From the NCBI GenBank assembly GCA_041659405.1, contig JBAZYK010000013.1, positions 1 through 32,000 on the forward strand: a stretch of DNA of 32,000 nucleotides. The letters are read 5' to 3'. The notes beneath the pieces are model-generated. The model made no database searches, had not been told where the DNA came from, and was given only the letters and a program-made list of their open reading frames with translations. Shown here piece by piece: positions 5,766 through 23,722 of this stretch. The position numbers and the translations under genes were made by a program. How positions within the stretch are numbered: position 1 is the first letter of the stretch; each line of letters opens with the position of its first letter. The stretch comes from Candidatus Altimarinota bacterium (GTDB lineage Bacteria > Patescibacteriota > Gracilibacteria > UBA1369).

Positions 5766-5884
5766 ACGTAATTTTATTAAAATAGGGGCCAATTCTGCTA
5801 TAGCAAGTCTTTTTTGTCAAGTAAATTTATTGGAGGGTACTTGTTCGTGAGTCTTTTACGTGTAGCAACCAAAAGGCCAGTACG

Positions 5885-7597: not shown

Positions 7598-8595
7598 GAA
7601 CTGAACCCCTCTTTTATTTCCCGAATAGTTAGCCGTTTTTCTTTTTGAAGCTGACGGATTTTCTTAGCTTGTTCGATCATGGTTTCAGCGTAGAGCTGAT
7701 ATCCTCCGGGTGAATATTCGGCTACTTTTAAAAGTCCTTCCTGAGTCCAGTAACGGATAGTGGGAACGTTTTCTTCTGAAGCCCCGGCCAGTTCGCCAAT
7801 TTTTAGAAGTTTTTGTTTTTGTGAATGAGATTTTCCTTTTTGAGCAGGTTCTTTTTGCTCAACCGCTTTGAGGTAAATGTTTAGTGAATTTTCGACACTT
7901 TCATAAATTATCCGATAATAATCATTCATACCTTGCGAAAGTTGGCCTTTTTCTATGGCGTTGATATATTTTAAACGATCTTCTTTTTTGATCAGTGCCG
8001 GAGGATAACCCTCTTGCAAAAGCAGCAGGTTCATCAACAGCCGTGCGGTTCTGCCATTACCGTCCGTAAACGGATGAATGCTCACAAACTTAAAATGAGC
8101 ATCTGCAGCAATCTTCACAGGATGATCGTCGATTTTTCCGTGAAGCCATTTGGTAAACTCTGACATCAATTCTGGGACCTTGAGCGGATTCGGCATGACC
8201 ACCGTTGATCCGGCAATTCGCACGGAAACACTTCGGTATCGTCCCGCATTCGTGTCATCAATTTTGCTCAAAATAATATGATGAATATCAAGAATATCTC
8301 TTTCACTAATGTTTCGCCTCTTTTTTTGGACAAATTTCTTGATGTACTCCAGAGCCTGAGCATGGTTGATGGCTTCCAGATGCTCGTTCATGGACTTGCC
8401 GCCAATTGTTATACCTTTTTCAACCACCAGAGCGGTTTCCTGTCGCGACAAAGTATTTCCTTCTATCGCATTCGATGTGTAGGTCAGTTCAATCTTAAAC
8501 CACTGTTCCAAATTCTTAACCAGTTCCGGCGAAAGAGGACGAAATGATTCGAGTTTTTTTTGTTGGGCCGTAATTTTTTTGAGAACTTTATCCAT
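7591..8595 (-). CDS. Fic-domain protein (AMPylase-type motif) fused to a C-terminal MerR-type HTH
   Basis: Canonical Fic motif 'HPFTDGNGRTARLL' (HxFx[D/E]GNGRxxR). N-terminal inhibitory-helix-type motif 'SNAIEGN' ([S/T]xxxE[G/N]). C-terminal 'LKIGELAGASEENVPTIRYWTQEGLL' matches the MerR-family HTH pattern. Start moved to the ATG at 8595 (MDKVLKK...), which removes a 64-codon low-quality extension overlapping the divergent gene at 8742. Confidence 0.85.
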   Translation of the reverse strand: MDKVLKKITAQQKKLESFRPLSPELVKNLEQWFKIELTYTSNAIEGNTLSRQETALVVEKGITIGGKSMNEHLEAINHAQALEYIKKFVQKKRRNISERDILDIHHIILSKIDDTNAGRYRSVSVRIAGSTVVMPNPLKVPELMSEFTKWLHGKIDDHPVKIAADAHFKFVSIHPFTDGNGRTARLLMNLLLLQEGYPPALIKKEDRLKYINAIEKGQLSQGMNDYYRIIYESVENSLNIYLKAVEQKEPAQKGKSHSQKQKLLKIGELAGASEENVPTIRYWTQEGLLKVAEYSPGGYQLYAETMIEQAKKIRQLQKEKRLTIREIKEGFSSQ

Positions 8596-9557: not shown

Positions 9558-12500
9558 CTATAATCCTTCCCCCGCCATTTCGTAATCCTGCGCGGTAAAT
9601 TCGGGGGCACCGGCGTCAAAATTATCGGAATCATTTTTTGGCTTGGTCCATTCCGCCAAAAGATTATCAACAAAACACTGGATTCCTTCCACATTTTTTT
9701 CGTAATCGGTCACATCCGGAAAATCCAAATCCACAATCTTGCGATACACCACTTGAATCAGTTTTTTCATTTTCTCGGTTTCTTCTTCCGAAATGTTCAG
9801 CTCTAAAAGTTTGATTTCGTCATTGATCGGTTGCAAAAATTCCAGAAAGCCATTTCTGACCTTATAGCGGCCCTTAAAGTCGCGCGCGTTTTCTACCAGA
9901 ATTTTATAAAAAATCAGCTGATTCCTGTTTTTCCAGGCTTTAATTTTTTCAAAATCCTGTTTGCCCTGCCAATCTTGCAGTGGTTTTCCGGTCTTGTAAT
10001 CAAAAACCAGAATCTCTTTTTTATCTTCGTCGTATCTGATCCTGTCGATTTTACCGGTTATCTCCGCCTTTCCAAGCACGACTCCCTGTTGTTGAAAATC
10101 AAATTCGGCCTGGTCTTTCGCATTAAAATCCGCGCGCCTTTTCTCGTAATAAATTTTCAAATGATCCCGCCCTTTTTCTAATAAATGGGCAAAATCTTTT
10201 TGATTCAGTCTTTGTTTAAGCAATGATTTTTCAAATTCTTGAAGCAAGAATTCGAGTTCGGGAACTTCGTTTGTCCGCTTCATTGTCACCAAAAGTTCCT
10301 GAAGCGCCGCGTGCATGGCCGATCCAAAAGCATTCGATGTAGTCAGTTTTTGCGGAAATTTTAAAAGATTCTGTTCCAAAAATTTTTGCGGGCCGCCATC
10401 AACAATATTCAAAAAATTATTCAAATGCGTAACACTCAATTTGTAGTTTTTGATCAGTCCTTTCAGCAAATCATTCTCATCAATATTTCGCACTTCATGG
10501 CGGGACACCTCAAACTGAAGTTCCAAAAGTTTTTCGAGCCCCTTATTTGCCGCATACTCTTCACGATAACCCTCAACCTGTTCCAGACTGATATTTTCAC
10601 GTTTTTTCTTTTCGAACTCGCCCTCTTCCAAAAATCTTAACCTGATTTGTTCATTTCCTTTTGGACTATAAATGTGACGACACAGGTAAAGATTTCTTTT
10701 GGCACGGGTCAAAGTCACGTAAAAAAGCCGCAAAGGGTCTTCCACACTATCACTTTCCGGCGACAAAGGAATATTTGCCGGAAACGAAAGTTTATCGCTT
10801 TTGCGATCAATCCAAAAATCTTCCTGACAATGCAAAACAAAAACATTTTCAAATTCCAGGCCTTTTGCCTTGTGCGCGGTCATCAAATTAACCGCTTTCT
10901 CCTCATCATTAAAGGCACTCTTGTGATGCATGGAAAGGTGGTGAGTCTCGTGCAGCTCCACAAATTCAACCACATCTTTTACAGTCAAAGTTTCGGTCCC
11001 GCGATGTTGTCTGATTTTTTTAACGAAAGCCTGCAAGCTCTGCAGAAAGTCCAAATAATCCAGTCTGGAATTCTCAAAACGCTCATTGCTGAAATAATAT
11101 TTTTTGTAAGGACTTTGAAATTTCGAGGATGGCTCCGTGAAGCCAGACTCCTCTTTAGGAAGAGCCATCCCATCTTCATCAAGCAAATTCTTTTCCTGCG
11201 TCGATCCCGTAATCAGATCAATAATTTCCTCAGCGGTTCCCGCTTTTGCCGCAATCCCCAGATCAAGAAAAAATTCAGCGATCGCTTTAATCTTTTCATT
11301 ATCGCTGGAAAGCATTACTTCCATCCAAAGTTTGCGCTCATGTGAAGCCTGAACCGAAATTTTCCAGACCTCAAGCCGTTCAATTCCCCAAAACTCAAAA
11401 CTCAAAATCTCCGGCAAAAAATCATCGGCTTCCTTTTGCCCCTTTAAAAGCATGGTACTAACAAAGCGCAGCATCAAAATAATTTCACGCAGATGTTTTT
11501 GCTCGAGCAGATCTTTTTTTCGTTCATAAGCCACCGGTATCCCAAAATAATCCAGTACCTTAGCGGTTTCTTCCAGAATCTTATGTTTTGGCGCGATCAC
11601 CGCAATTTCCGAAGGCGGAACTTTTTCCACCTCAATTTTATGTTTGATAGTTTCGGCGATCCAGGCCAACTCTTCAAACCCAGTCTGGAACTCTTTTTCC
11701 AGGATTTCGCCATTCGTTAATTTGGTATTTGCGGATTGAAGTTCTTTTTTAATCTGATCGGGGAGTCGCGCTTCCAGTCTTTCATTCCCGGTAAGAATAA
11801 TTTTTCGAACAAGGTCAAGGATCGGCTGCGTGGAGCGATAATTCTTCTGCAGCACAACCAGTTCCGGATTCAAATATTTTTGGTGAAAATTCAGAATATT
11901 TTCCAAATTCGCGCCCTGAAACTTATAAATAGCCTGATCATCATCACCAACCGCCAAAATATTTGGCCTTCTTTCATTCACTTCGGCATCCAGCAGCAGA
12001 TCCAAAAGTTGCATCTGCACCGCGTTCGTATCCTGAAATTCATCAACCAAAACATACAAATATCTTTCCTGAAGGTTGTAACGCAGCTCCGGATTTTTAG
12101 CGATAACTTCCGCGGTATCCATCAACATATCATCAAAATCAAAATAGCCTTCTTTGCGCAGCTCCTGCTGATATTTCTCGTAAATCTCACACAGTTCAAA
12201 ATGCTTTTTAATATTTTCCAGTTCTTTCAAAGACGGCAAATTTTGATCGTTCTTTTTTAAATATTCATTTTTCCAAACGGTAATTGGCTTTGTATCGGGC
12301 TTTTCGCCACTCATAGAATCTCCAAAAGCCAGCTCCAGACTGTCAATCAATTGAGTCCCGATTGGTTTATAAGGCAAAACCTTGGTCCTTGGCTGCATTG
12401 GGACATTTTTCAACTTTTCCAGAAGTCCGGCAATTTGTTCGAGTGTCTTTTTGCTCATTCTTGCGCTAAAAATCTCCGGAAAAAATCCATTCACCTGTTC

Positions 12501-13043
12501 CAGATAATTTTTATTTTCTTTCAGAATTTCCCGCAGTGTCTTTGGATCAAGCCCGCCTTTTTTCAGTTCACCGATTTTTTTGATGATGTCACGAAGGTAC
12601 GTATAGCCCTGTTCCGGATTATAGGATCTTAGCAGCGTGTCGTGCTTTAACGCCTCCAAGATTTTTTCCACAATTTTATACTGAACCAGTTCATCGGCAG
12701 GATTAAAAGAAGCCCCCTGATAAAAAAACTCCGGATTTCGGTTAATGATTTCCGAACCAAAACTATGAAAAGTGTGAATGGCCACCCTATAAGCTTCCTG
12801 CCCAATCAGACCGGCAAGCCTTTTGCGCATGTTTACAGCCGCCGAATCGGTAAAAGTAAGACAAAGTATGGAAGAGGGAAGTGTATCCGTAGAACGCAAA
12901 ATATTGGCAACCCTTAAACTTAAAAGCTCCGTTTTGCCGGATCCCGGCCCCGCAATCACCAAAACCGGCCCATCTATTGTATCCACAGCCCTTTTCTGCT
13001 CGGCATTCAGGTTCTGATATCTTTCTGAAAAGTGATTATTCAT
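9558..13043 (-). CDS. UvrD/PcrA/AddA-type SF1 helicase fused to a C-terminal RecB-family PD-(D/E)XK nuclease
   Basis: 1161 aa. Walker A 'AGPGSGKT', motif II 'VDEFQDT', 'NYRSTQPIL', 'AHKAKGLEFENVFV', 'YVTLTRAKRNLYL'. C-terminal 'GKIDRI ... LVFDYKTGK ... NQLIFYKIL' gives the D / D-x-K / QxxxY nuclease motifs. Confidence 0.85.
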   Translation of the reverse strand: MNNHFSERYQNLNAEQKRAVDTIDGPVLVIAGPGSGKTELLSLRVANILRSTDTLPSSILCLTFTDSAAVNMRKRLAGLIGQEAYRVAIHTFHSFGSEIINRNPEFFYQGASFNPADELVQYKIVEKILEALKHDTLLRSYNPEQGYTYLRDIIKKIGELKKGGLDPKTLREILKENKNYLEQVNGFFPEIFSARMSKKTLEQIAGLLEKLKNVPMQPRTKVLPYKPIGTQLIDSLELAFGDSMSGEKPDTKPITVWKNEYLKKNDQNLPSLKELENIKKHFELCEIYEKYQQELRKEGYFDFDDMLMDTAEVIAKNPELRYNLQERYLYVLVDEFQDTNAVQMQLLDLLLDAEVNERRPNILAVGDDDQAIYKFQGANLENILNFHQKYLNPELVVLQKNYRSTQPILDLVRKIILTGNERLEARLPDQIKKELQSANTKLTNGEILEKEFQTGFEELAWIAETIKHKIEVEKVPPSEIAVIAPKHKILEETAKVLDYFGIPVAYERKKDLLEQKHLREIILMLRFVSTMLLKGQKEADDFLPEILSFEFWGIERLEVWKISVQASHERKLWMEVMLSSDNEKIKAIAEFFLDLGIAAKAGTAEEIIDLITGSTQEKNLLDEDGMALPKEESGFTEPSSKFQSPYKKYYFSNERFENSRLDYLDFLQSLQAFVKKIRQHRGTETLTVKDVVEFVELHETHHLSMHHKSAFNDEEKAVNLMTAHKAKGLEFENVFVLHCQEDFWIDRKSDKLSFPANIPLSPESDSVEDPLRLFYVTLTRAKRNLYLCRHIYSPKGNEQIRLRFLEEGEFEKKKRENISLEQVEGYREEYAANKGLEKLLELQFEVSRHEVRNIDENDLLKGLIKNYKLSVTHLNNFLNIVDGGPQKFLEQNLLKFPQKLTTSNAFGSAMHAALQELLVTMKRTNEVPELEFLLQEFEKSLLKQRLNQKDFAHLLEKGRDHLKIYYEKRRADFNAKDQAEFDFQQQGVVLGKAEITGKIDRIRYDEDKKEILVFDYKTGKPLQDWQGKQDFEKIKAWKNRNQLIFYKILVENARDFKGRYKVRNGFLEFLQPINDEIKLLELNISEEETEKMKKLIQVVYRKIVDLDFPDVTDYEKNVEGIQCFVDNLLAEWTKPKNDSDNFDAGAPEFTAQDYEMAGEGL

Positions 13044-13105: not shown

Positions 13106-14563
13106 ATGTTTGAACAATCCTTTAAAAATATCGACGATATTCTCCACAAAGATGCCGGTGCATCAAGTGAGCTTGATTACGTAGAACAGACCTCGTGGAT
13201 CCTTTTTTTGAAGTATCTTGATGACCTGGAAAAGGATAAAAAGACCGAAGCATCGCTTGCCGGGAAAAAATATAAAGATATTATTGATCCAAAGTTTCGT
13301 TGGGAAGTTTGGGCTGCGCCAAGAACTACAGATGGTAAATTAGACCATCACAAAGCCCTTTCAGGCGATGATTTAAAAGATTTTGTTGATCACCAGCTTT
13401 TTCCATATCTCAAAAAATTCAAGTCGGAAGCCGAAAGTCCGGACACCATTCAATATAAAATTGGTGAAATTTTTAGTGAGATCAAAAACAAGATCCAGAG
13501 CGGCTACAACCTGCGTGAAGTTTTGAATATTATTGACAGTATGCGCTTTCGTTCGCAGACAGAAAAGCACGAACTTTCGCACCTGTATGAAGGAAAAATT
13601 AAGAATATGGGTAATGCCGGCAGAAATGGCGGAGAATACTACACTCCACGTCCGCTTATTAAAACGATTGTTAAGGTTGTCGCTCCAAAAATCGGCGATA
13701 AAATTTACGATGGAGCCGTTGGTTCCGCGGGATTTTTGGTGGAAGCTTTTGAGTATCTTAAGCAGAGCAAGGATCTTTCCACGCATGACATGGAGATTCT
13801 GCAGAAAAAGACCTTTTACGGCAAAGAGAAAAAGTCCCTCGCTTACGTTATTGGCATCATGAACATGGTTTTGCATGGAATTGAAGCGCCAAACATTATT
13901 CACACCAACACTCTTGCCGAAAACCTAGCCGATATTCAGGAAAAAGATCGTTATGATGTTGTCCTGGCTAATCCGCCATTTGGTGGCAAAGAAAGGGCCG
14001 AAGTCCAACAAAATTTCCCCATAAAAACCGGAGAAACTGCGTTTCTGTTTCTTCAGCATTTTATAAAAATTCTAAAAGCCGGTGGCAAGGCGGGCGTTGT
14101 CATTAAAAATACTTTCCTTTCCAATACGGATAACGCCTCTGTTTCCCTCCGCAAGTTGTTGCTGGAAAGCTGCAATCTGCACAGCGTTCTGGATTTGCCC
14201 GGTGGAACCTTCACAGGCGCAGGCGTAAAAACAGTTATTTTGTTTTTCCAAAAAGGCACACCAACCAAGAAAGTTTGGTTTTACCAGCTAAACCTTGACC
14301 GCAATCTAGGCAAAACCAATCCACTTAACGAAAAAGACCTGGAAAAATTCGTGGAACTGCAAAAGACCAAAGCAGACAGCGAAAATTCATGGACGATAGA
14401 CGTCTCAAAAATTGACCAAAAAACTTTCGATCTATCGGTGAAAAACCCAAACAAAGGCGAAGAAGCCGCTTTGCGTGATCCAAAAGAAATTTTGGAGGAA
14501 ATGGGGAAATTGGATAAAGAAAGTGAGCAGATTTTGAAGAAAATTGAGGGGTTTATTTCGTAG
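13106..14563 (+). CDS. hsdM: Type I restriction-modification system, DNA methyltransferase subunit M (N6-adenine)
   Basis: HsdM N-terminal domain pattern ('ILHKDAG...YVEQTSWILFLKYLDD'), 'GEYYTPRPL', SAM motif 'DGAVGSAGFL', catalytic 'NPPFGG'. Confidence 0.92.
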   Translation: MFEQSFKNIDDILHKDAGASSELDYVEQTSWILFLKYLDDLEKDKKTEASLAGKKYKDIIDPKFRWEVWAAPRTTDGKLDHHKALSGDDLKDFVDHQLFPYLKKFKSEAESPDTIQYKIGEIFSEIKNKIQSGYNLREVLNIIDSMRFRSQTEKHELSHLYEGKIKNMGNAGRNGGEYYTPRPLIKTIVKVVAPKIGDKIYDGAVGSAGFLVEAFEYLKQSKDLSTHDMEILQKKTFYGKEKKSLAYVIGIMNMVLHGIEAPNIIHTNTLAENLADIQEKDRYDVVLANPPFGGKERAEVQQNFPIKTGETAFLFLQHFIKILKAGGKAGVVIKNTFLSNTDNASVSLRKLLLESCNLHSVLDLPGGTFTGAGVKTVILFFQKGTPTKKVWFYQLNLDRNLGKTNPLNEKDLEKFVELQKTKADSENSWTIDVSKIDQKTFDLSVKNPNKGEEAALRDPKEILEEMGKLDKESEQILKKIEGFIS

Positions 14564-14629
14564 AAATCTGGTTTGAAATTGGCTAATTGCGGACTTATAA
14601 TTCATTTTTATACAAAATTTCGTATAATC

Positions 14630-14657
14630 TTGACTTATATTTCTATTTTGATATACT
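14630..14657 (+). promoter_or_regulatory. Candidate internal sigma70-type promoter in the hsdM-ATPase gap
   Basis: TTGACT (14630-14635), 16-nt spacer, TG (14649-14650) a TATACT (14652-14657). Lies 33 nt upstream of the ATG at 14691. A second TATAAT lies at 14623-14628. Confidence 0.4.
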
Positions 14658-14690: not shown

Positions 14691-15893
14691 ATGATACATT
14701 CATTTTCCTGCAAAAATTTCTACTCATTTGCCGAATATGCCAGCGTAAAATTTTTAGTGAACGATAAGGTTCCCGCAAAAGAAGCATATTTAAAATCAGA
14801 ATCAGGCGAACGTGTGTCCAAGGCTATGGTCGTTATAGGTCCAAATGCATCCGGTAAAACCAATTTGCTCAAAATTCCGCCGTTTTTAAAATGGTTGATT
14901 GTGGATTCTTTTAATACTAAGCCGGAAGATGAAATACCAATTAAGCCTTTTTTATTTCGTGATTTAGAAAATAAACCAACTGAGTTGTCCGTTGAATTTG
15001 AAATGAATGGCGATATTTATTCTTACTTTTTTGCTCTTTCCGCAAAACGAATTATCAAAGAGGAGTTAAAGGTGAAAAATAAAACCAAACAGAAAACGAC
15101 CACTAAAACTCTTTTTGTTCGTAACTGGAATGAAAAACAACAACAATATGAGTTAAACGATAAAAATTTTAATTTGCCCAAAGGATTTGAAAATGAAAAC
15201 TTTTTACGCTCCAACGCCAGCCTTATTGGCTCCGCCATGCGCTTAAATCATGAACTTAGCCAGGAGATTGGGAAATATTGGCAAAAAATTGAATCAAATG
15301 TTTATGAAGGTGGTCTTCGCACAAATCATATGCACGATTTTCGTGAAGCATTGTCTTTTTTTAGCGATAACGAACCTTTAAAAAAAGAAGCGGAAAAACT
15401 TTTGGCCCGCTACGATATAGGTTTGGAGGCATTTAATATTACAAAAGAAAAAAAAGAAGGGCGCACGCGCGTCGATGCACGCGCGGTACATTCCTTTTCG
15501 GGTCACAAATATGAGTTGCCGATTGAGTATGAATCGTCCGGAACACGCCAGCTTTTCATTCTTTTAAGTACAATTTTACAGGTTTTATCAAATGGAGGGA
15601 TAGCAGTATTGGATGAATTTGATGTTAATCTTCATCCTGACATGGTGTCGGCCTTATTCGATCTTTTTGTTTCACCAGCTACGAATCCCCATAACGCCCA
15701 AATTATTTTCAGTACGCACAGCCATCGCATTTTGAGCGAATTAGACAAATACCAGATTATTTTGACTGAAAAAAATGAGAATGGCAGCAGTGAAGCTTGG
15801 CGATTGGACGAAATGTCCGGTGTGCGTGCGGATGATAATTATTACACCAAATACATTGCCGGAGCATACGGCGCTATACCAAAAATTGATTAA
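14691..15893 (+). CDS. ABC-type (AAA_21/AAA_15-like, RloA/OLD-ATPase-like) ATPase
   Basis: 400 aa. The 'MIHSFSCKNFYSF' start is typical of this family. Walker A 'GPNASGKTN', signature-like 'ESSGTRQLF', Walker B 'IAVLDEFDVNLHP', H-loop 'IFSTHS'. Confidence 0.8.
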   Translation: MIHSFSCKNFYSFAEYASVKFLVNDKVPAKEAYLKSESGERVSKAMVVIGPNASGKTNLLKIPPFLKWLIVDSFNTKPEDEIPIKPFLFRDLENKPTELSVEFEMNGDIYSYFFALSAKRIIKEELKVKNKTKQKTTTKTLFVRNWNEKQQQYELNDKNFNLPKGFENENFLRSNASLIGSAMRLNHELSQEIGKYWQKIESNVYEGGLRTNHMHDFREALSFFSDNEPLKKEAEKLLARYDIGLEAFNITKEKKEGRTRVDARAVHSFSGHKYELPIEYESSGTRQLFILLSTILQVLSNGGIAVLDEFDVNLHPDMVSALFDLFVSPATNPHNAQIIFSTHSHRILSELDKYQIILTEKNENGSSEAWRLDEMSGVRADDNYYTKYIAGAYGAIPKID

Positions 15894-15904: not shown

Positions 15905-16438
15905 ATGTCCAGATCAAACCCCTACAAGAAGGCAAAAAGAGAAGCAAAGAAAACCATTCTTTTCTATGGTGAAGGAGAGGCGGAAAGCATTTTCTTAAAA
16001 CATTTAAAGAAAATGTACGCCAATAATAGCGGAATTGCGGTAACAATTCGCAATGGACACGGGGGAACAGCCGAAATTATTGTTCATAAAGCCATTCAAT
16101 ATCCTGGTGATTTTGACAGGAGAGTTGTAGTGTTGGACAACGATAAGCTAAAGCAGGAAATGGAGCAGGCCAGAAAGTTAGCAGGGAAATGCGAAATTGA
16201 TTTAATAGAGAACACTCCATGTTTGGAAGCACTACTTCAGTCAATTGTGGACGGTGGTAAGCCAAAAATGAACAAAAGTTCAGCCCAATACAAGAAAAAT
16301 TTTGAAAAAAATCATATCTGCAAAGAAAAGCGTCTTGATCCAAGAGAATATGAAAAATTATTCACTATAAAATTATTGGATAAACGGCGGAAAGAGATAA
16401 AGAATCTGGAGGTGATTATTGGGTTTATGGAGGGGTGA
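15905..16438 (+). CDS. RloB-like (TOPRIM-type) protein
   Basis: 177 aa. Basic N-terminus then 'TILFYGEGEAES' (TOPRIM glutamate; compare the RloB pattern 'ILIVCEGEKTE'), 'VVVLDND' (DxD), 'ENTPCLEALLQ' (compare the RloB pattern 'sNPCFElWlL'). Starts 11 nt after the ATPase stop. Confidence 0.65.
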   Translation: MSRSNPYKKAKREAKKTILFYGEGEAESIFLKHLKKMYANNSGIAVTIRNGHGGTAEIIVHKAIQYPGDFDRRVVVLDNDKLKQEMEQARKLAGKCEIDLIENTPCLEALLQSIVDGGKPKMNKSSAQYKKNFEKNHICKEKRLDPREYEKLFTIKLLDKRRKEIKNLEVIIGFMEG

Positions 16439-16500: not shown

Positions 16501-17355
16501 ATGAGTAGAATATTTGATTTTAAAAAAAGATTTGGGCAAGAAGTAAATATTGATGACCTCAAAAAAGATTTTATAAACAAGATTAGCCATTTTTTAATGG
16601 AAGAGCTAGATGGAAAAATCGGTTCATTTTATAGTGACAGAACTAAATCTATTTTTGATTTTGTTGCTATGGAGTTTAGCTGTAATCCATCAAATTTGAT
16701 ACAAAAATACAATAGCAATAGTTTTGGCCCTACTCTCTCTAGGCCCACTTTTTCTATATTCTCTGGAAATGATTTTGAAAAAACGCTTTTATTGATTGAA
16801 GTTTTTTATGATTATTTCAGACGTTCTGACGACTATGAAAAAGAATTTTGGATAGAAGAAATCGATAAAACAGTACTATTAGCTCTTAGTCAGCCAATTT
16901 CGCTTGGTATTTCTTGGCGTAATGGTAGATTTTATCCAGAAGGGGTGAAAGAATTCGATGAGAAATTGATTTCAGATGTATTGATATGGCTTGAAAACAA
17001 ACCAAAAATCAAAGCACTTTATCAAAATGCTCTCGATCATTACTCTAAATCGATAAATGATCCAATTAAGAGGAAAGATGTGTTTAGTAATGCTTTTCAG
17101 GCTGTCGAAAAGCTTACAAAAGAATTTCTAGAAACTTCAACGAATGCTTTTGATAACAATTTTAACGCTTTAATAAAAAAACTCGACCTTCATAAAGAAT
17201 GGAGTAAAATATTTAATTCTTACAAGGAATTGAGTAAGGAGTTTGGTAGGCATGGTGGAAATAATGATAATTTTATTCCAGAACAAGCTGATACAGAAGC
17301 CTTTTTATATTTATCAGGATTAATTATGAGGCTAATTCTTCAAAAAATATTATGA
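16501..17355 (+). CDS. Hypothetical protein, 284 aa (possible degenerate Abi_C/HEPN-like C-terminus)
   Basis: Long AT-rich ORF with an ATG start, same strand as the operon. Its stop overlaps the next gene's start (ATGA at 17352-17355). No motif I can assign firmly. The tail 'FGRHGGNN-x10-EAFLYLSGLIMRLIL' is laid out like Abi_C-type tails but lacks a canonical Rx4-6H. Confidence 0.6.
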   Translation: MSRIFDFKKRFGQEVNIDDLKKDFINKISHFLMEELDGKIGSFYSDRTKSIFDFVAMEFSCNPSNLIQKYNSNSFGPTLSRPTFSIFSGNDFEKTLLLIEVFYDYFRRSDDYEKEFWIEEIDKTVLLALSQPISLGISWRNGRFYPEGVKEFDEKLISDVLIWLENKPKIKALYQNALDHYSKSINDPIKRKDVFSNAFQAVEKLTKEFLETSTNAFDNNFNALIKKLDLHKEWSKIFNSYKELSKEFGRHGGNNDNFIPEQADTEAFLYLSGLIMRLILQKIL

Positions 17356-18335
17356 GTGAAAGATCAATTGAAGTAATTTCTATCCATTTCAATGTTCCGA
17401 GTCATTATTTACTGCTTAGTGAATTTATTGAAACAGCAAATGATGTAGAACAAATATTGCAAGAATTTAATTTTAAATTCTTTGATGCCAAACTTAATAT
17501 TCAGATTTTAGTTTTACCTCCAGAGGAGGGGAGTTTTCTTAAAAAACTGGGCATATTTTTTGCATTACCAGTTTGCGTTTTATCATGGGGGTTTCTAGAA
17601 AGCGACATAGGAAAAGCTTACATAAAAGGCCTAACAGGTAATGAACCTGCTTATTGGGCAGAAATTGCCGGTGAAGGTACCGCAAAGGAGTTAATAATTT
17701 TAAAAGAATCAGTTAAGGGGTTTCTAGAAAAAAATAATAACACTTTAGAGCAAGCTGGGATCAAAATTAATGAATTTCCATTTGCTTATAAGGCACGAAA
17801 TAATTTTTACAACATGTGCTTAAAAAGTGAGGAAATCTCAGGAGTAGAATTTAATAATTCTGGTTGTTTCGATATTAAAAGAGTTAATTTCCCTAACTAT
17901 TTTACAAAGGAAATTGATAAGCCAGATGGTAAAAAATCTAAATCTGTATTTAGGCTGCACAGACTAGTAATTGTTGCACCTGTTATAAGTGGAGGTAGTT
18001 CTGCTCAATGGAAGACGCGAGATGCAAAAACACTAAATCCATTAAATTTTTTTCTTAAGGATGAGGATTTTTATGATGGAATTTTATCCGGAAAATATCC
18101 GCTTAAAGAAACAGGAAACGACGATATTATCACAGTATGCATCGAATATAAAATACATGAAGAAAATGGACAAGAAAAAGTTTACGAAAGAAGTGCTATC
18201 AAAGTATACCAATTTAATAATATCAAGATAGCTGAGATTCCTACAGATCTAGAACTCATGGCATTTAAAGAATCAAAACATTTTGAAGATAAAGAAAAAG
18301 AAAATAGAAATGAAAATCAGCCTTCATTATTTTAA
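17352..18335 (+). CDS. Hypothetical protein, 327 aa, one hydrophobic segment, Lys/Glu-rich tail
   Basis: ATG overlaps the upstream stop by 4 nt. Ends 9 nt before hsdS. Hydrophobic stretch 'LGIFFALPVCVLSWGFL'. C-terminal 'KESKHFEDKEKENRNENQ'. No recognisable catalytic motif. Confidence 0.6.
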   Translation: MSERSIEVISIHFNVPSHYLLLSEFIETANDVEQILQEFNFKFFDAKLNIQILVLPPEEGSFLKKLGIFFALPVCVLSWGFLESDIGKAYIKGLTGNEPAYWAEIAGEGTAKELIILKESVKGFLEKNNNTLEQAGIKINEFPFAYKARNNFYNMCLKSEEISGVEFNNSGCFDIKRVNFPNYFTKEIDKPDGKKSKSVFRLHRLVIVAPVISGGSSAQWKTRDAKTLNPLNFFLKDEDFYDGILSGKYPLKETGNDDIITVCIEYKIHEENGQEKVYERSAIKVYQFNNIKIAEIPTDLELMAFKESKHFEDKEKENRNENQPSLF

Positions 18336-18344
18336 CTATAACCT

Positions 18345-19547
18345 ATGGTCAAAAAAACTATCCAGACTAATTGGCAAACCAAAAAACTCGATGAAGTCTG
18401 TGATTTAATAACTTGTGGCGTGGCTGCTAGGCCTAATTATGTTGTGAATGGTACTCCATTTCTTTCTGCAAAAAATGTAAAAAATGGCCAAGTAATTTGG
18501 AATGGTTTTAATTGTATTTCTGAAAGTACTCATAAAGAATTAACGAAAAATAATAAACCCATGGTTGGCGATATATTGTATACACGCGTAGGTAGCTATG
18601 GAGAAGCAGCAGTTGTTGAGGATAATATTGAATTTAGTATATTTGTTAGCCTTACCTTAATTAAGGTAAATAAGAATTTATTAAATAATTATTTTTTAAA
18701 ATATTATCTTAATTCGAGTTATATAAAAAGTTTGGCAAAGAGCAGTATTAGCAGTTCTGGTGTCGGTAATTTAAATGTTGGGTCAGTTCGAGATTTTCCA
18801 ATATCTTTCCCCCCCATTCCCGAACAACGCCGCATCGTAAAAATCCTCGATGAAGCTTTTGAAAAAACCGCAAAAGCCAAAGAAAACGCCGAAAAAAATC
18901 TACAAAATGCCAAAGAGCTTTTTGAATCGTATTTACATAGTGTTTTTACCAATTCGGGAAAGGATTGGGAGGAGGAAGAATTGGGTGATATTTGTGAAGT
19001 TGAGTATGGATACACCGAAAAAGCAAAAAACAACGGTGACTATCGGTTTGTAAGGATCACTGACACAGACGAAAATGGTTTACTGACAAAAGAAAATAAG
19101 ATGTACATAGATTCTTTTGACGGGGCGGATAAATATGTTTTGAATGACGGAGATTTGCTCATGGCTCGAACGGGTGCTTCTGCAGGTAATGTATTATTAT
19201 TTGAGGGTGATGAAGATGCAGTATTTGCATCGTACCTAATTAGAATGAAATTTAAAAAAGAAATATTAAGTAAGCTGTATTGGTATTTCTCAAAATCTAA
19301 AATTTATTGGGATCAAGTTAGCCAACTATCCGCTGGTTCGGCGCAACCTCAATTTAACGGCGGCGCACTAAAGCAGGTCATTTTTTCTTATCCAAAATTT
19401 TTCTCTGAACAAAAGGCCATCGTCGCTCACCTCGACGCCCTCTCCGCCGAAACCAAAAAGCTCGAATCAATTTATAAACAAAAGCTCACTAATCTGGAAG
19501 AGCTCAAGAAATCAGTGCTCAAAAAAGCATTTTCTGGTCAATTGTAG
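18345..19547 (+). CDS. hsdS: Type I restriction-modification system, specificity subunit S
   Basis: 400 aa. Two variable target-recognition regions are separated by the conserved helical spacer 'PPIPEQRRIVKILDEAFEKTAKAKENAEKNLQNAKELFESYL'. The protein ends in the second conserved region 'EQKAIVAHLDALSAETKKLESIYKQKLTNLEELKKSVLKKAFSGQL'. Confidence 0.9.
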   Translation: MVKKTIQTNWQTKKLDEVCDLITCGVAARPNYVVNGTPFLSAKNVKNGQVIWNGFNCISESTHKELTKNNKPMVGDILYTRVGSYGEAAVVEDNIEFSIFVSLTLIKVNKNLLNNYFLKYYLNSSYIKSLAKSSISSSGVGNLNVGSVRDFPISFPPIPEQRRIVKILDEAFEKTAKAKENAEKNLQNAKELFESYLHSVFTNSGKDWEEEELGDICEVEYGYTEKAKNNGDYRFVRITDTDENGLLTKENKMYIDSFDGADKYVLNDGDLLMARTGASAGNVLLFEGDEDAVFASYLIRMKFKKEILSKLYWYFSKSKIYWDQVSQLSAGSAQPQFNGGALKQVIFSYPKFFSEQKAIVAHLDALSAETKKLESIYKQKLTNLEELKKSVLKKAFSGQL

Positions 19548-19570
19548 ATTTTTATAATTAATTTAATTTT

Positions 19571-20140
19571 ATGGCTAATATTATCACAAAAACAGCTGAA
19601 GAATTGTCAGAAACGGATGATCTTGTTATTGATGAGCTATTGCATTCATCAAATGTATTTATTGTGTTACATCCCACTGAGGATAAGGAGGATTTAAATA
19701 TTGTTAAAGAATTGGGAAATGCCTTGAATTATATGGGTAACATGTTTGCATATGAAGAACTAGGGGGAAAAGGAGGTGGGGGTTGTGATTTATTACCATC
19801 CCTTTCAGATGTTATATTTTATTCGGTTGCTTTTGTCGTAACAACATCTGCAACAACTTTTATTACTGAGTTAACAAAAGATATATATAAATCTACATTA
19901 AAAAAGTTGTTTGATAAAAAAAAGAATTCTTCCTATGAAGATGGTAAGTTTGTGCTCAAATTGACAACGTCTGCAGGCTCAACCATTACTTATTATTTCC
20001 AAAAATATTTAACTAATGATGAATTTATTGAAGCATTAGTACTTGTGCGGGATCATTTTATTAATTTTGAAAATAGCCATAAAATTGAATATCTTGATTT
20101 TATATTTGATAGAAAAGAAAATTCCTGGATGCCGCTATAG
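19571..20140 (+). CDS. Hypothetical protein, 189 aa, Gly-run plus one hydrophobic segment
   Basis: Very AT-rich ORF, ATG 23 nt after the hsdS stop. 'GGKGGGGCDLLPSLSDVIFYSVAFVVTTSATTFI' is a glycine run followed by a putative membrane segment. No known motif recognised. Confidence 0.5.
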   Translation: MANIITKTAEELSETDDLVIDELLHSSNVFIVLHPTEDKEDLNIVKELGNALNYMGNMFAYEELGGKGGGGCDLLPSLSDVIFYSVAFVVTTSATTFITELTKDIYKSTLKKLFDKKKNSSYEDGKFVLKLTTSAGSTITYYFQKYLTNDEFIEALVLVRDHFINFENSHKIEYLDFIFDRKENSWMPL

Positions 20141-20198: not shown

Positions 20199-20317
20199 CT
20201 CGAGCCACGAAATGTCCTCGAACCAAAAAACTCGAAGCAATCTATCGCCAAAAACTCGCAAAGCTGGAAGAACTCAAGAAATCCGTCCTGAAAAAAGCTT
20301 TTGCGGGGGAATTGTAA
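20199..20317 (+). pseudogene. hsdS 3'-terminal remnant (scar 1): ...RTKKLEAIYRQKLAKLEELKKSVLKKAFAGEL*
   Basis: By hand alignment, 20222-20317 matches the intact hsdS end 19452-19547 codon for codon: 76/96 nt and 25/31 aa identical, including the stop position. No TRD and no plausible start. The frame is broken just upstream (about 20219) relative to hsdS. Confidence 0.8.
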
Positions 20318-20336
20318 ATTATGTTACACTTAAAAC

Positions 20337-20516: not shown

Positions 20517-21050
20517 ATGAGCAATTTCGATTTTATTAAAGATGAAAATCTCCGTAACACACTGGATGATGCCATTGAGTTTATTTATGTACTTTTTAAA
20601 AGATCTAAAGAAGAAGGGCAAAAAGAATTATACAAAGAGGAAACACATAGAATAATAATTTTATATGTTGTGTCGGCAATAGAAGCCGTCTTGCTTTACT
20701 TCTATAAAGATCGAGGCGAAAGAATTAAACATCCAGAATATAAGTTTGTTCAGGCATTGTCCCCAAAGTTTGGACACAGCGAGAAAAAGGGTTGCCCTTT
20801 AGTAATCGCGGTTCAAGAAAAAAAAGAGAAAGATCAAATAGGCATGCGCGATCTCGTAACTTTTTTTAAAGCTAAAAAACTCATAGAAGAAAAAATGGCA
20901 AATGACATTTTAGAATTAAATGACGTAAGAAATACATTTCATTTAAGTAAGCCACGAGCTAAAAGTTGCGATGTGAAGCAGGTTGAGGCTGCGCTTCAGT
21001 TATTAGTGCATACAATTGAAAATGCACCAAAGGCATTAGAGAAAAAATAA
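20517..21050 (+). CDS. Hypothetical all-alpha protein, 177 aa, HEPN-like layout with non-canonical 'RNTFH'
   Basis: N-terminal 'FIKDENLRNTLDDAIEFIYVLF ... IILYVVSAIEAVLLYFY' and C-terminal 'ELNDVRNTFHLSK' resemble small HEPN-type proteins seen next to R-M genes. The R-to-H spacing is 3 residues, not the canonical 4-6. Confidence 0.5.
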   Translation: MSNFDFIKDENLRNTLDDAIEFIYVLFKRSKEEGQKELYKEETHRIIILYVVSAIEAVLLYFYKDRGERIKHPEYKFVQALSPKFGHSEKKGCPLVIAVQEKKEKDQIGMRDLVTFFKAKKLIEEKMANDILELNDVRNTFHLSKPRAKSCDVKQVEAALQLLVHTIENAPKALEKK

Positions 21051-21061
21051 AAAACATTACT

Positions 21062-21253
21062 ATGACTGATGAAGAAATAGCTATCAAACAGCAAGCGAAC
21101 GAATTTGCCCAAAAGACCAGGAAGGAAGACACTTCCAGTGATTTTTCCAAGTTTTTTCGTAAAGCGTCTTATGCTCAGAAAAGGAAGGTGTTTTTGGAGG
21201 TAGCCAAGAAGGCAAGCAAGGAACAACTAGAAGTTATTCAGAGTGTTCAATAA
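21062..21253 (+). CDS. Small hypothetical protein, 63 aa, charged/helical
   Basis: ATG 11 nt after the preceding stop. 'MTDEEIAIKQQANEFAQKTRKE...KASKEQLEVIQSVQ'. Its stop codon (21251-21253) sits exactly at the junction with hsdS scar 2. Confidence 0.4.
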   Translation: MTDEEIAIKQQANEFAQKTRKEDTSSDFSKFFRKASYAQKRKVFLEVAKKASKEQLEVIQSVQ

Positions 21254-21290
21254 ATCCATCCTAAAAAAGGCATTTAGCGCTAGCCTATAG
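21252..21290 (+). pseudogene. hsdS 3'-terminal remnant (scar 2): KSILKKAFSASL*
   Basis: 13 codons, AAA TCC ATC CTA AAA AAG GCA TTT AGC GCT AGC CTA TAG. Compare the intact hsdS end KSVLKKAFSGQL* (9/12 aa and 25/39 nt identical by hand count; Ser and Leu use different codon families). Similarity stops abruptly upstream of 21252. Confidence 0.5.
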
Positions 21291-21370: not shown

Positions 21371-23722
21371 ATGAACGAATCAGAAACCCGCGCGGAATAT
21401 ATTGACCCCAAGCTTAAACAAAGTGGCTGGGGAGAAATAGAAGGATCAAAAATTCTTCGTGAATTTCGCATTACAGAGGGCAGAATTCAGGTTGGCGGCA
21501 CGCGCATGAAGCCGGAAATTGCCGATTATGTTTTAGTGTACAAAAATGTGAAACTTGCCGTGATTGAGGCTAAAAAAGAAGATTTAAGTGCTACCGAAGG
21601 CGCGGCTCAGGCAAAAGCTTATGCTGAAAAATTGAAGATTGATCATACCTACGCAACTAATGGTAAGAAAATTTACGAGATTTCCATGAAAACCGGCGTG
21701 GAGGGCTATGTGGACTCTTTTCCAACTCCGGAAGAATTATGGAACAAGGTTTTTGCGCGTCACAATGAATGGCGCGAGAAATTTTTGGCAGTTCCGTCGG
21801 AAGGAGAATACGGGAAACGGTATTATCAAGAACTTGCCATTAATAGGGCATTAGAGGCTATTGCTGAAGAAAAGAAACGAATCTTGCTAACTTTAGCCAC
21901 CGGAACCGGCAAGACGATTATCGCCTTCCAGATAGCCTGGAAACTCTTCCAGACCCGTTGGAATATAAAGCGTGATGGAAGCAGAAGACCAAGGGTTCTT
22001 TTTCTTGCGGATCGCAATATTTTGGCAGATCAGGCTTTCAACTCATTTTCATCTTTTGCTGAGGACGCATTGGTGCGCATTAACCCCGCAGACATAAAGA
22101 AAAAGGGGAATGTGCCAACAAATGGCAGTATTTTCTTCACGATTTTCCAGACTTTTATGAGTGGGCCGAATAATACGCCTTATTATGGCGATTATCCTGC
22201 TGATTTCTTTGATTTTATTATTATTGATGAGTGTCACCGTGGCGGTTCAAATGACGAATCAAACTGGCGGGGGATTCTGGAGCATTTTTCTCCGGCTGTT
22301 CAGCTCGGTTTAACCGCAACTCCAAAACGAAAAGATAATATTGATACTTACAAATATTTTGGCGAACCGGTTTACATTTATTCGCTTAAAGAAGGGATCA
22401 ATGATGGCTTTTTAACGCCATTTAAAGTCAAAAGGATTCAAACGACTCTTGATGAGTACGTTTATACTTCCGATGATCAGATTGTTGAGGGCGAGGTGGA
22501 AGAAGGGAAAATTTATGAAGAATCCGATTTTAATAGAATTATCGAGATCAAGGAGCGCGAAGCAAAACGCGTTCAAATCATGCTGGACGAAATCAATCAA
22601 AACGAGAAAACGATTGTGTTCTGCGCGTCGCAGGATCATGCGCTTGCGGTACGGGACTTAATCAATCAAACCAAAAAAAGTTCAGATCCAAATTATTGTG
22701 TGCGTGTAACTGCTAACGATGGTGCGCGCGGTGAGCAGTTTTTACGGGCTTTTCAGGATAATGAAAAAACTATTCCAACAATTCTGACCACTTCCCAAAA
22801 GCTGTCCACGGGTGTTGATGCCCGCAATATTCGCAATATTGTTTTGATGCGTCCGATCAACTCCATGATTGAATTTAAGCAGATTGTAGGGCGCGGAACG
22901 CGTCTTTTTGATGGAAAAGAGTATTTTACGATCTTTGATTTTGTCGATGCCTATAAGCATTTTTCTGATCCACAGTGGGACGGCGAGCCAATCGATGAAA
23001 CAACCGAAAATAAAGAGCCAAAAAATACGAATTATGATGTCGATCCTTCTAAAAACAGTGGATTAGCTTTAGCTGATGGGGATTTTGAAGGTTTTGAACC
23101 AAAGAAAAAATTGAAAATAAAATTGCGGGACGGCAAAGAACGTGAAATCAAACACATGATCTCTACTTCCTTCTGGAGCGCCGACGGCAAGCCAATTTCA
23201 ACGGAAGAGTTTTTGCAAAATATGTTTGGGACTCTGCCGGAGTTTTTTGCCAATGAAGATGAATTGCGGAAAATCTGGTCAAATCCAAAAACAAGAAAAA
23301 TGTTTTTAGAGAAGATTGCGGATCTTGGATACGGGAAAGATCAGCTAATAACATTACAAAAAATGATCGACGCCGAAAAAAGCGATATTTTTGATGTACT
23401 TGCCTATATTTCCTTTGCCACACCGCCAATTTCCAGAAAAGAACGTGTAGATGAAGCAAAAGATGCCATTCTAAAGCCACTTGATGAACAGCAAAAAGAT
23501 TTCTTTGGATTTGTGCTGAACGAATATGTTGAAAATGGAGTAGAAGAGCTCGACGAAGAAAAATTGCCTGATCTGCTAAATCTGAAATATCACGCAATCT
23601 CTGATGCTGAAAAAGCGCTTGGTGGAGTCGAAAAGATCAGGTCGACCTTTTTCAATTTTCAAAAGGATTTATACTTAAACAAGCGTAAAGTTGAGGTGAA
23701 AAATGTGAAGTCGCCAAAGTGA
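21371..23722 (+). CDS. hsdR: Type I restriction enzyme, restriction/translocase subunit R (EcoEI-type C-terminal domain)
   Basis: N-terminal PD-(D/E)XK 'IADYVLVYKNVKLAVIEAKKE'. SF2 motifs 'LATGTGKT', 'IIIDECHR', 'LGLTATPKR', 'QIVGRGTR'. The C-terminal 'SDIFDVLAYISF...' region resembles the EcoEI R-protein C-terminal domain. Confidence 0.92.
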   Translation: MNESETRAEYIDPKLKQSGWGEIEGSKILREFRITEGRIQVGGTRMKPEIADYVLVYKNVKLAVIEAKKEDLSATEGAAQAKAYAEKLKIDHTYATNGKKIYEISMKTGVEGYVDSFPTPEELWNKVFARHNEWREKFLAVPSEGEYGKRYYQELAINRALEAIAEEKKRILLTLATGTGKTIIAFQIAWKLFQTRWNIKRDGSRRPRVLFLADRNILADQAFNSFSSFAEDALVRINPADIKKKGNVPTNGSIFFTIFQTFMSGPNNTPYYGDYPADFFDFIIIDECHRGGSNDESNWRGILEHFSPAVQLGLTATPKRKDNIDTYKYFGEPVYIYSLKEGINDGFLTPFKVKRIQTTLDEYVYTSDDQIVEGEVEEGKIYEESDFNRIIEIKEREAKRVQIMLDEINQNEKTIVFCASQDHALAVRDLINQTKKSSDPNYCVRVTANDGARGEQFLRAFQDNEKTIPTILTTSQKLSTGVDARNIRNIVLMRPINSMIEFKQIVGRGTRLFDGKEYFTIFDFVDAYKHFSDPQWDGEPIDETTENKEPKNTNYDVDPSKNSGLALADGDFEGFEPKKKLKIKLRDGKEREIKHMISTSFWSADGKPISTEEFLQNMFGTLPEFFANEDELRKIWSNPKTRKMFLEKIADLGYGKDQLITLQKMIDAEKSDIFDVLAYISFATPPISRKERVDEAKDAILKPLDEQQKDFFGFVLNEYVENGVEELDEEKLPDLLNLKYHAISDAEKALGGVEKIRSTFFNFQKDLYLNKRKVEVKNVKSPK

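Follow-up and report, generated by a model that had tools for sequence, protein, structure and literature searches.

A type I restriction-modification (R-M) operon of a Candidatus Altimarinota bacterium carries, between its hsdM and hsdS genes, two adjoining genes that we consider probably to be independent single-gene accessory modules, stacked there together with a two-gene AbiL module. The operon lies in a window of 32,000 nucleotides, the whole stretch of DNA that was analyzed (positions 1 to 32,000 of contig JBAZYK010000013.1). We refer to the two genes, which are open reading frames (ORFs) of 284 and 327 codons, as ORF284 (16501-17355) and ORF327 (17352-18335). Both lie on the + strand, they share the four nucleotides ATGA at 17352-17355, and the ORF327 stop ends at 18335, leaving 9 nt before hsdS begins at 18345, all as an original prediction made from the sequence had described. 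That prediction read the arrangement as an undescribed, translationally coupled module, possibly supplying the third and fourth components of a system with the ATPase/RloB pair immediately upstream. We find instead that the two families occur independently of each other, that both are recurrently embedded in R-M operons and coupled to the adjacent R-M gene, and that the cargo turns over on the same R-M backbone.

Judged by conservation, both ORFs encode conserved proteins rather than being chance reading frames. ORF284 has 59 close homologs, and a family scan of 1.84 billion representative proteins matched at least 694 clusters (50% identity) at E≤1e-3, of which 342 reach E≤1e-10; most of the matches listed are 250-300 residues long. 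ORF327 has 20 close homologs, rising to 73 when a profile is used. Because of these homologs and clusters, we take both to be genuine genes. The opposite strand of 16501-18335 contains no ORF of 80 aa or more. The stretches of peptide sequence cited in the original prediction can be found in the translations.

To examine how the families are distributed, we assembled 38 distinct related loci, 20 with a relative of ORF284 and 18 with a relative of ORF327. They comprise 15 genome loci seeded with ORF284, 12 metagenome loci seeded with ORF327, and 11 distinct places reached by exact-protein look-ups or by a plasmid match. Nine window proteins were compared by tblastn with the first 27 loci (L001-L027), and profile hidden Markov models of both families were run against the six-frame ORFs of all 41 loci. 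With both methods, none of the 38 related loci holds both families; they are found together solely in the window. There was room to find a partner, as all 20 ORF284-family loci extend at least 1 kb downstream and 14 of the 18 ORF327-family loci extend at least 0.9 kb upstream. The neighborhood census thus found no co-occurrence outside the window, and the claim of a functional pair was not borne out. The proposed partnership with the upstream ATPase and RloB proteins fared no better: tblastn found no homologs of AbiLi or AbiLii in L001-L027, and the Pfam gene tables of the later loci place no AAA_21 or RloB gene beside either family. Additionally, the ORF284 family aligned by hhalign to the ORF327 family, or to ORF177 of the window, with a probability of only 0.2% in each case.

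The four-nucleotide overlap that suggested a partnership recurs with other neighbors. Members of the two families overlap by 4 nt with hsdM (L030 and L003), with hsdS (L041, L034, L036, L020 and L022), with an Eco57I-type (type IIG) methyltransferase gene (L008) and with a type III Res gene (L025). Independent gene calls were used for L030, L041, L034 and L036, and our own ORF calls for L003, L005, L008, L020, L022 and L025. Because the same overlap joins these genes to various R-M genes elsewhere, the ATGA of the window represents the usual packing and is not a sign of partnership; no translational coupling specific to ORF284 and ORF327 was found. One homolog, P0060, is labeled Candidatus Gracilibacteria, and we therefore considered whether genetic code 25 might read through the TGA within ATGA. 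This was ruled out: TGA is a true stop here, as it terminates hsdR and other long genes, and table 11 leaves the long ORFs intact. Read-through under code 25 would in any case add just 8 residues.

A Magasanikiibacteriota operon (L005, 7218-16444) shows directly that cargo is exchanged while the R-M backbone stays. Its hsdM and hsdR products are 76% identical to those of the window, and for this reason we regard it as the same R-M backbone. The order of genes is hsdM, a Shedu gene (SduA_C), an ORF284 homolog (63% identical), hsdS, a gene for a ParA-like ATPase, and hsdR, with DUF5655 also among the swapped cargo. This operon has neither AbiL nor ORF327, so ORF284 is kept on the same backbone without its neighbor from the window.

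Embedding in R-M operons recurs in both families. ORF284 relatives are embedded in or abut R-M genes in 8 of the 20 distinct loci. Six of these are type I: besides L005 they are hsdR-hsdM-X-Ymh (L003), hsdR-HATPase/DUF4325-hsdM-X (L030) and hsdM-hsdS-X-hsdR (L041), where X is the ORF284 homolog, and two loci with hsdS downstream of the homolog (L006 and L007). Other arrangements are Eco57I/MmeI-type methyltransferase-X-...-DpnII-like (L008) and SNF2-Eco57I methyltransferase-TIR-X (L012). In L003 the Hypoth_Ymh (HEPN) protein gene at 5073-5801 overlaps the ORF284 homolog. On the Ignavibacteriales contig L007, the homolog (121-923) is split into two overlapping ORFs (91-423 and 339-920), probably either because a frameshift has made it a pseudogene or because of a sequencing error. 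A gene with UvrD-helicase and PDDEXK_1 domains lies close to the ORF284 homolog in L028.

Relatives of ORF327 are R-M-embedded in 8 of 12 informative loci. Six loci are type I, with the ORF327 homolog (Y) arranged as hsdM-Y-hsdS (L016), hsdR-DUF6119-hsdS-Y-HD-hsdM (L020), hsdR-hsdS-Y-hsdM (L022 and L034), the same arrangement plus PIN_12 (L036), or hsdM-BroN-Y-hsdS (L032). Two more are type III-like Res/Mod loci (L025 and L026). The DUF6119 and HD/HD_assoc proteins of L020 (6799-8445 and 11058-12413) flank the pair formed by hsdS and the ORF327 homolog, and the PIN_12 protein of L036 is encoded at 7096-8217, in the R-M slot that also holds the homolog. Solo homologs of ORF327 occur on a 12-kb Paracoccus plasmid (L033) and in L035 and L037, and include one among housekeeping genes in Magnetospira. 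The alphaproteobacterial L037 (4170-7101) places its homolog, P0117, with the tail QLSLF, directly downstream of dnaA with no R-M genes nearby. In tblastn searches of plasmid and phage collections, the Paracoccus homolog was the only match. Both families also occur outside a defense context.

Both proteins match candidate families that were defined by just this kind of context. The PDC families are 'phage defence candidates' of one or several genes, chosen by 'guilt-by-embedding' because they sit within BREX, DISARM or type I R-M systems (Payne et al. 2024, bioRxiv 10.1101/2024.01.29.577857). The window conforms to this pattern, with same-strand single genes inside a type I R-M system, between hsdM and hsdS and all on the + strand. 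In PADLOC, residues 141-279 of ORF284 are collinear with positions 92-229 of the 237 in PDC-S32 (E 2.4e-5, 22.5 bits), and residues 18-121 are collinear with positions 30-126 of the 285 in a second PDC-S32 profile (E 9.7e-4). PDC-S32 is matched by 79 of 126 diverse ORF284 relatives, with a best E of 3.9e-19. Since the score of ORF284 itself is only 22.5 bits, we place it in a distant branch of PDC-S32, mainly of bacteria of the candidate phyla radiation (CPR); by sequence it appears to be distantly related to the family and not clearly one of its members. Similarly, residues 112-293 of ORF327 are collinear with positions 115-293 of the 320 in PDC-S42 (E 1.7e-9, 35.6 bits; a second match has E 1.2e-8), although just 11 of 66 ORF327 relatives match this family. 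Neither PDC name was found in a literature search, and neither occurs in the text of the supplements of Payne et al. 2024. The description of the two genes as unannotatable thus needs qualification: nothing lies above threshold in Pfam, NCBIfam or PHROGs and the PDB provides no match to name them by, but the PADLOC candidates do match. That they are plausible defense genes is supported.

The AlphaFold2 (AF2) model of ORF284, with a mean predicted local distance difference test (pLDDT) score of 84, is all-helical with one beta hairpin and has two domains, bearing out the earlier description of a helical protein. Across an alignment of the 126 relatives, H251 is invariant (126/126) and is preceded by R250 (120/126); their codons lie at 17248-17253 on the + strand. 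Other highly conserved positions are E203 (123/126), E266 (125/126), Y270 (124/126) and R277 (123/126), and D153, G148 and F144 are conserved in at least 90% of the relatives. Most likely, R250 and H251 together with E203, E266, Y270 and R277 form a catalytic or ligand-binding pocket in the C-terminal bundle of an effector or sensor, as this pattern of conservation suggests. Foldseek found nothing in the PDB below E=1 for ORF284 (best E 2.3). A profile search of PDB sequences gave only a marginal match (E 0.019) between the N-terminal region and chains named 'Dandelion' (9wwz and 9wxf), a protein that a literature search did not identify.

The layout of ORF284 had been likened to that of Abi_C/HEPN-type abortive-infection proteins lacking the canonical Rx4-6H motif. 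The absence of the motif is confirmed. Because the arginine and histidine are adjacent, the Rx4-6H spacing is not satisfied; no conserved histidine follows the conserved arginine by 5-7 residues, and a histidine at +8 is present in just 22 of 126 relatives. The likeness to HEPN remains unproven. A few relatives match such families weakly (Pfam HEPN in 4 of the 126, best E 0.0053; Hypoth_Ymh in 2; PADLOC AbiJ in 1; CARF_HEPN in 1), the C-terminal domain of ORF284 consists of helices and has a conserved Arg-His, and the R-M slots in question often hold HEPN genes, such as the adjoining Ymh gene of L003. However, neither Foldseek against the PDB, with nothing below E=1, nor the profile search of PDB sequences returned a HEPN protein, and hhalign against a Ymh HEPN protein gave a probability of 0.2%. 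A divergent HEPN-like nuclease is a possible identity for ORF284, judging from its conserved residues, and we regard it as unlikely that the protein is an abortive-infection RNase of the HEPN/Abi_C type.

ORF327 appears from its profile matches to be a distant member of a PDC-S42/'LAPAL' family. Its residues 47-286 are collinear with positions 43-288 of the 292 in NCBIfam NF053583 (LAPAL_fam, 'LAPAL motif-containing putative phage structural protein'; 24.8 bits, E 1.3e-5), and 53 of the 66 relatives match this family at E≤0.01 (best 1.3e-10). By these scores LAPAL_fam is related to ORF327, which at 24.8 bits against a curated cutoff of 60 bits is not itself a member. A literature search for 'LAPAL motif' returned no papers. 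The AF2 model (pLDDT 75) comprises an N-terminal alpha/beta region, a low-confidence hydrophobic stretch at residues 66-84, a helical middle, a beta-rich part at 160-290, a helix and a disordered tail. Foldseek against the PDB matched the C-terminal beta domain to OB-like folds, but weakly and without significance (best E 0.04). The single hydrophobic segment and the charged tail noted in the original prediction are both real, and the former is conserved: the maximal 19-residue Kyte-Doolittle mean falls at residues 66-84 in nearly all of the 66 relatives and reaches at least 1.6 in 34 of them. This Gly-rich segment (17547-17603, + strand) is possibly membrane-associating or buried. A terminator-like hairpin at 17517-17529 falls within the codons of a conserved LPPEEG motif and was discarded as probably due to chance.

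At their C-termini, the ORF327 relatives converge on Q-x-[D/S]-L-F after an acidic linker that is unconserved and rich in indels. The columns are Q in 42 of 65 sequences, D or S in 40 of 66, L in 62 of 66 and F in 62 of 64. The window protein ends in QPSLF (18318-18332, + strand), at its extreme C-terminus and in a region of pLDDT below 50, and relatives carry QVDLF, QLSLF, QLNLF or QSSLF. The motif in its strict form, Q-x-[DSNE]-[LM]-F, is present in 30 of the 66 tails, whereas shuffling the tails leaves a mean of 0.3 matches (maximum 2) and just 1 of 656 windows from the protein bodies has it. These tails resemble the peptide that binds the beta sliding clamp (DnaN), for which the consensus is QL(S/D)LF and which is located at the C-terminus of clamp partners (PMC9690074); ORF327 has a peptide of this type in a disordered C-terminal region. 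Homologs without an adjacent R-M gene also keep the motif (P0108, MPSLFD; P0117, QLSLFDK; L033, RTLFDQ), which favors a general host partner such as DnaN over an R-M subunit. We consider it possible, although less likely than not, that the ORF327/PDC-S42-like family is a previously unrecognized clamp-docking class in type I and III R-M operons. Its members would sit on DnaN at replication forks through Qx[D/S]LF and would there detect or arrest phage replication, or couple R-M to replication.

The same tail might serve R-M more directly. ORF327-type proteins could be accessory adaptors whose clamp tail holds a methyltransferase or restriction complex at replication forks and so serves maintenance methylation or the alleviation of restriction. 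The analogy is with DNMT1, which binds PCNA. The position of the gene between hsdS and hsdM fits such a role (in L022 it overlaps both neighbors, and in L034 and L036 hsdS, by 4 nt each), as does the R-M embedding in 8 of 12 informative loci, type III included. However, solo homologs on the small Paracoccus plasmid, at a housekeeping locus and beside dnaA retain the motif, the family serves type I and type III R-M, whose subunits are unrelated, and most R-M operons have no such gene. We judge an adaptor role to be quite unlikely.

It is more doubtful still that ORF284 and ORF327 are passengers derived from phages or other mobile genetic elements, such as a captured phage structural or other phage protein, with no role in defense. 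The NCBIfam name of the family related to ORF327 points in this direction, as do Foldseek matches of ORF327 to viral models (BFVD), namely an uncharacterized Myoviridae protein (E 2.6e-6) and a mycobacteriophage protein (E 1.6e-4), and many ORF284 homologs lie among housekeeping genes. Yet neither protein was matched by tblastn in 50,697 phage genomes, no PHROG was significant, and no locus has neighboring phage genes. Repeated same-strand embedding with 4-nt overlaps in several types of R-M system would also be unexpected for structural genes.

Finally, we give almost no credence to an obligate, translationally coupled two-gene system, or to a four-gene system with the AbiL-like ATPase and RloB proteins: the ATGA overlap, a near-identical low GC content at third codon positions (GC3; 22.8% for ORF284 and 20.7% for ORF327) and a location beside AbiLi and AbiLii on the same strand all fit it, but it is contradicted by the 38 loci in which the families never meet, by the lack of AbiL homologs in L001-L027 and beside either family in the later gene tables, by the 4-nt overlaps with unrelated R-M genes, by L005 and by the occurrence of both families as solo genes.

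According to Pfam and PADLOC, the two genes are surrounded by a complete type I R-M system and accompanied by an AbiL module. ORF284 and ORF327 are indeed operonic with the R-M system, as cargo inside it. All genes of the operon are on the + strand. The backbone consists of the methyltransferase gene hsdM (13106-14563; Pfam N6_Mtase 1e-65 and HsdM_N; PADLOC MTase_I 2.6e-162), the specificity subunit gene hsdS (18345-19547; Pfam Methylase_S 2e-37; PADLOC Specificity_I 1e-50) and the restriction subunit gene hsdR (21371-23722; Pfam ResIII 2.5e-38 and EcoEI_R_C 4.1e-28; PADLOC REase_I 1.4e-135). The AbiL module has the expected order of an AAA_21 ATPase, AbiLi-like (14691-15893; PADLOC AbiLi 6.5e-72; Pfam AAA_21 5.9e-32), followed by its AbiLii/RloB-like partner (15905-16438; PADLOC AbiLii 1.1e-8; Pfam RloB 4.4e-7, just under the cutoff), and is complete without ORF284 and ORF327. 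Between hsdS and hsdR lie ORF189 (19571-20140) and ORF177 (20517-21050), which have no match and no significant match, respectively, in Pfam, PADLOC, NCBIfam, PHROGs or the PDB. ORF177 contains VRNTFH, whose R-x3-H spacing is near that of the HEPN motif and does not match it. The region's two best matches to a sigma-70-like promoter (11/12 and 10/12, one with an extended -10 TG) are at 14573-14657, by consensus match only. As they fall in the 127-nt gap between hsdM and AbiLi, the cargo block may be under its own promoter. Divergent from the operon, a 1161-aa ORF occupies 9558-13043 of the window on the - strand; its motifs suggest a UvrD/AddA-like helicase-nuclease.

The composition of this interior also bears on how the genes arrived. 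The GC contents that had been counted by hand for three 60-nt lines are exact (0.283, 0.467 and 0.533), and ORF284 (29.9% GC) and ORF327 (31.2%) do differ from hsdM and hsdR (41%, GC3 40-43%). The low GC is not peculiar to the two genes, however, and spans the entire variable interior (about 14.6-21.3 kb). AbiLi and AbiLii have 37-38% GC. Because hsdS (35.8%), ORF189 (30.5%, GC3 22.6%) and ORF177 (33.7%) are low in GC as well, the foreign composition extends to the entire interior of the operon. A repeat search found a second copy of the 3' end of hsdS with its stop codon: 19451-19550 recurs at 20221-20320 on the + strand as a 100-nt direct repeat (80% identical). This orphan copy, directly after ORF189, encodes a peptide ending in TKKLEAIYRQKLAKLEELKKSVLKKAFAGEL before the stop. 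A second and more degraded hsdS-tail-like stretch, ending in KSILKKAFSASL before a stop, is possible between ORF177 and hsdR (about 21200-21290). These copies look like scars of serial recombination at the conserved region of hsdS, which would have brought in cargo. The hsdS duplication is the sole strong repeat, and no convincing repeats flank ORF284-ORF327.

We suggest that the cargo genes arrived in separate acquisitions and owe their co-expression to being tightly packed in the operon, where two more unannotated genes, ORF189 and ORF177, lie between hsdS and hsdR. ORF284 and ORF327 would each be an autonomous anti-phage or R-M-accessory protein. Through QPSLF, ORF327 may dock on DnaN; it would thereby be positioned on DNA undergoing replication and could sense or block the replication of phages there.

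Several points weigh against this interpretation. The sample of loci is small (38) and came from pattern-seeded scans. Ten of the 20 ORF284-family loci lack a defense context, having mevalonate genes, Hsp70, NUDIX or others nearby, and L001, L009, L013, L014 and L039 are housekeeping contexts. The unusually low GC3 common to ORF284 and ORF327 would fit their having arrived together, although the GC3 of ORF189 is just as low. The defense roles of PDC-S32 and PDC-S42 are predictions only, and the HEPN-like reading of ORF284 is weak, given the missing Rx4-6H, the lack of a fold match in the PDB and the hhalign result. Putative clamp binding rests on a five-residue motif whose Q is absent from about a third of the tails, and a membrane-like segment is awkward to reconcile with a clamp tail in one protein.

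Taken together, our analysis corrects a tempting misreading: neighboring genes need not form a system just because they have an ATGA overlap and a composition in common. The window illustrates compactly how independent defense cargo gathers in a type I R-M operon. AbiL is joined here by one gene like PDC-S32, one like PDC-S42 and two further unannotated genes, and a sister operon has Shedu in the same slot. The analysis also provides the first concrete handles on two families that had been labels only. For ORF284, whose family comprises at least 694 clusters, the handle is the Arg-His together with the conserved Glu, Tyr and Arg residues; for ORF327 it is the tail that resembles a clamp-binding peptide. 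If that tail binds DnaN, replication forks and R-M-associated immunity would be linked in a way that can be tested, and a clamp-docking family would connect a hub of the replisome directly to bacterial innate immunity.

How the two proteins relate to known systems differs from case to case. ORF284 is the same as PDC-S32 in protein size, single-gene organization and embedding in R-M operons, and the match gives it a label and no mechanism. With the HEPN/Abi_C nucleases it has in common a helical C-terminal domain, a conserved arginine and histidine and a similar neighborhood, but it differs in lacking Rx4-6H and any significant match in sequence or fold. ORF327, like PDC-S42/LAPAL, is a single gene in R-M operons, though its scores fall below the curated thresholds, and the 'phage structural' name of LAPAL is not backed by any phage genome match here. 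Like clamp binders that end in QL(S/D)LF, such as translesion polymerases, it ends in QPSLF after a disordered linker; the SocB toxin is also a clamp binder. Unlike these proteins, ORF327 has no polymerase, repair or known toxin domain, and about a third of the tails in its family have no Gln. A further parallel is with defense genes embedded in type I R-M systems, including PrrC, RloA/RloB (AbiL), Shedu and the 'guilt-by-embedding' set. Whereas those genes have recognizable effector domains and ORF284 and ORF327 have none, the genomic logic is the same, with same-strand nesting between hsd genes. Likewise, variable cargo is carried on a conserved backbone, as seen when the window is set beside L005 with Shedu, L036 with PIN_12 and L020 with HD and DUF6119, which is the pattern of variable cargo in R-M operons described by Payne et al. 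2024 (bioRxiv 10.1101/2024.01.29.577857).

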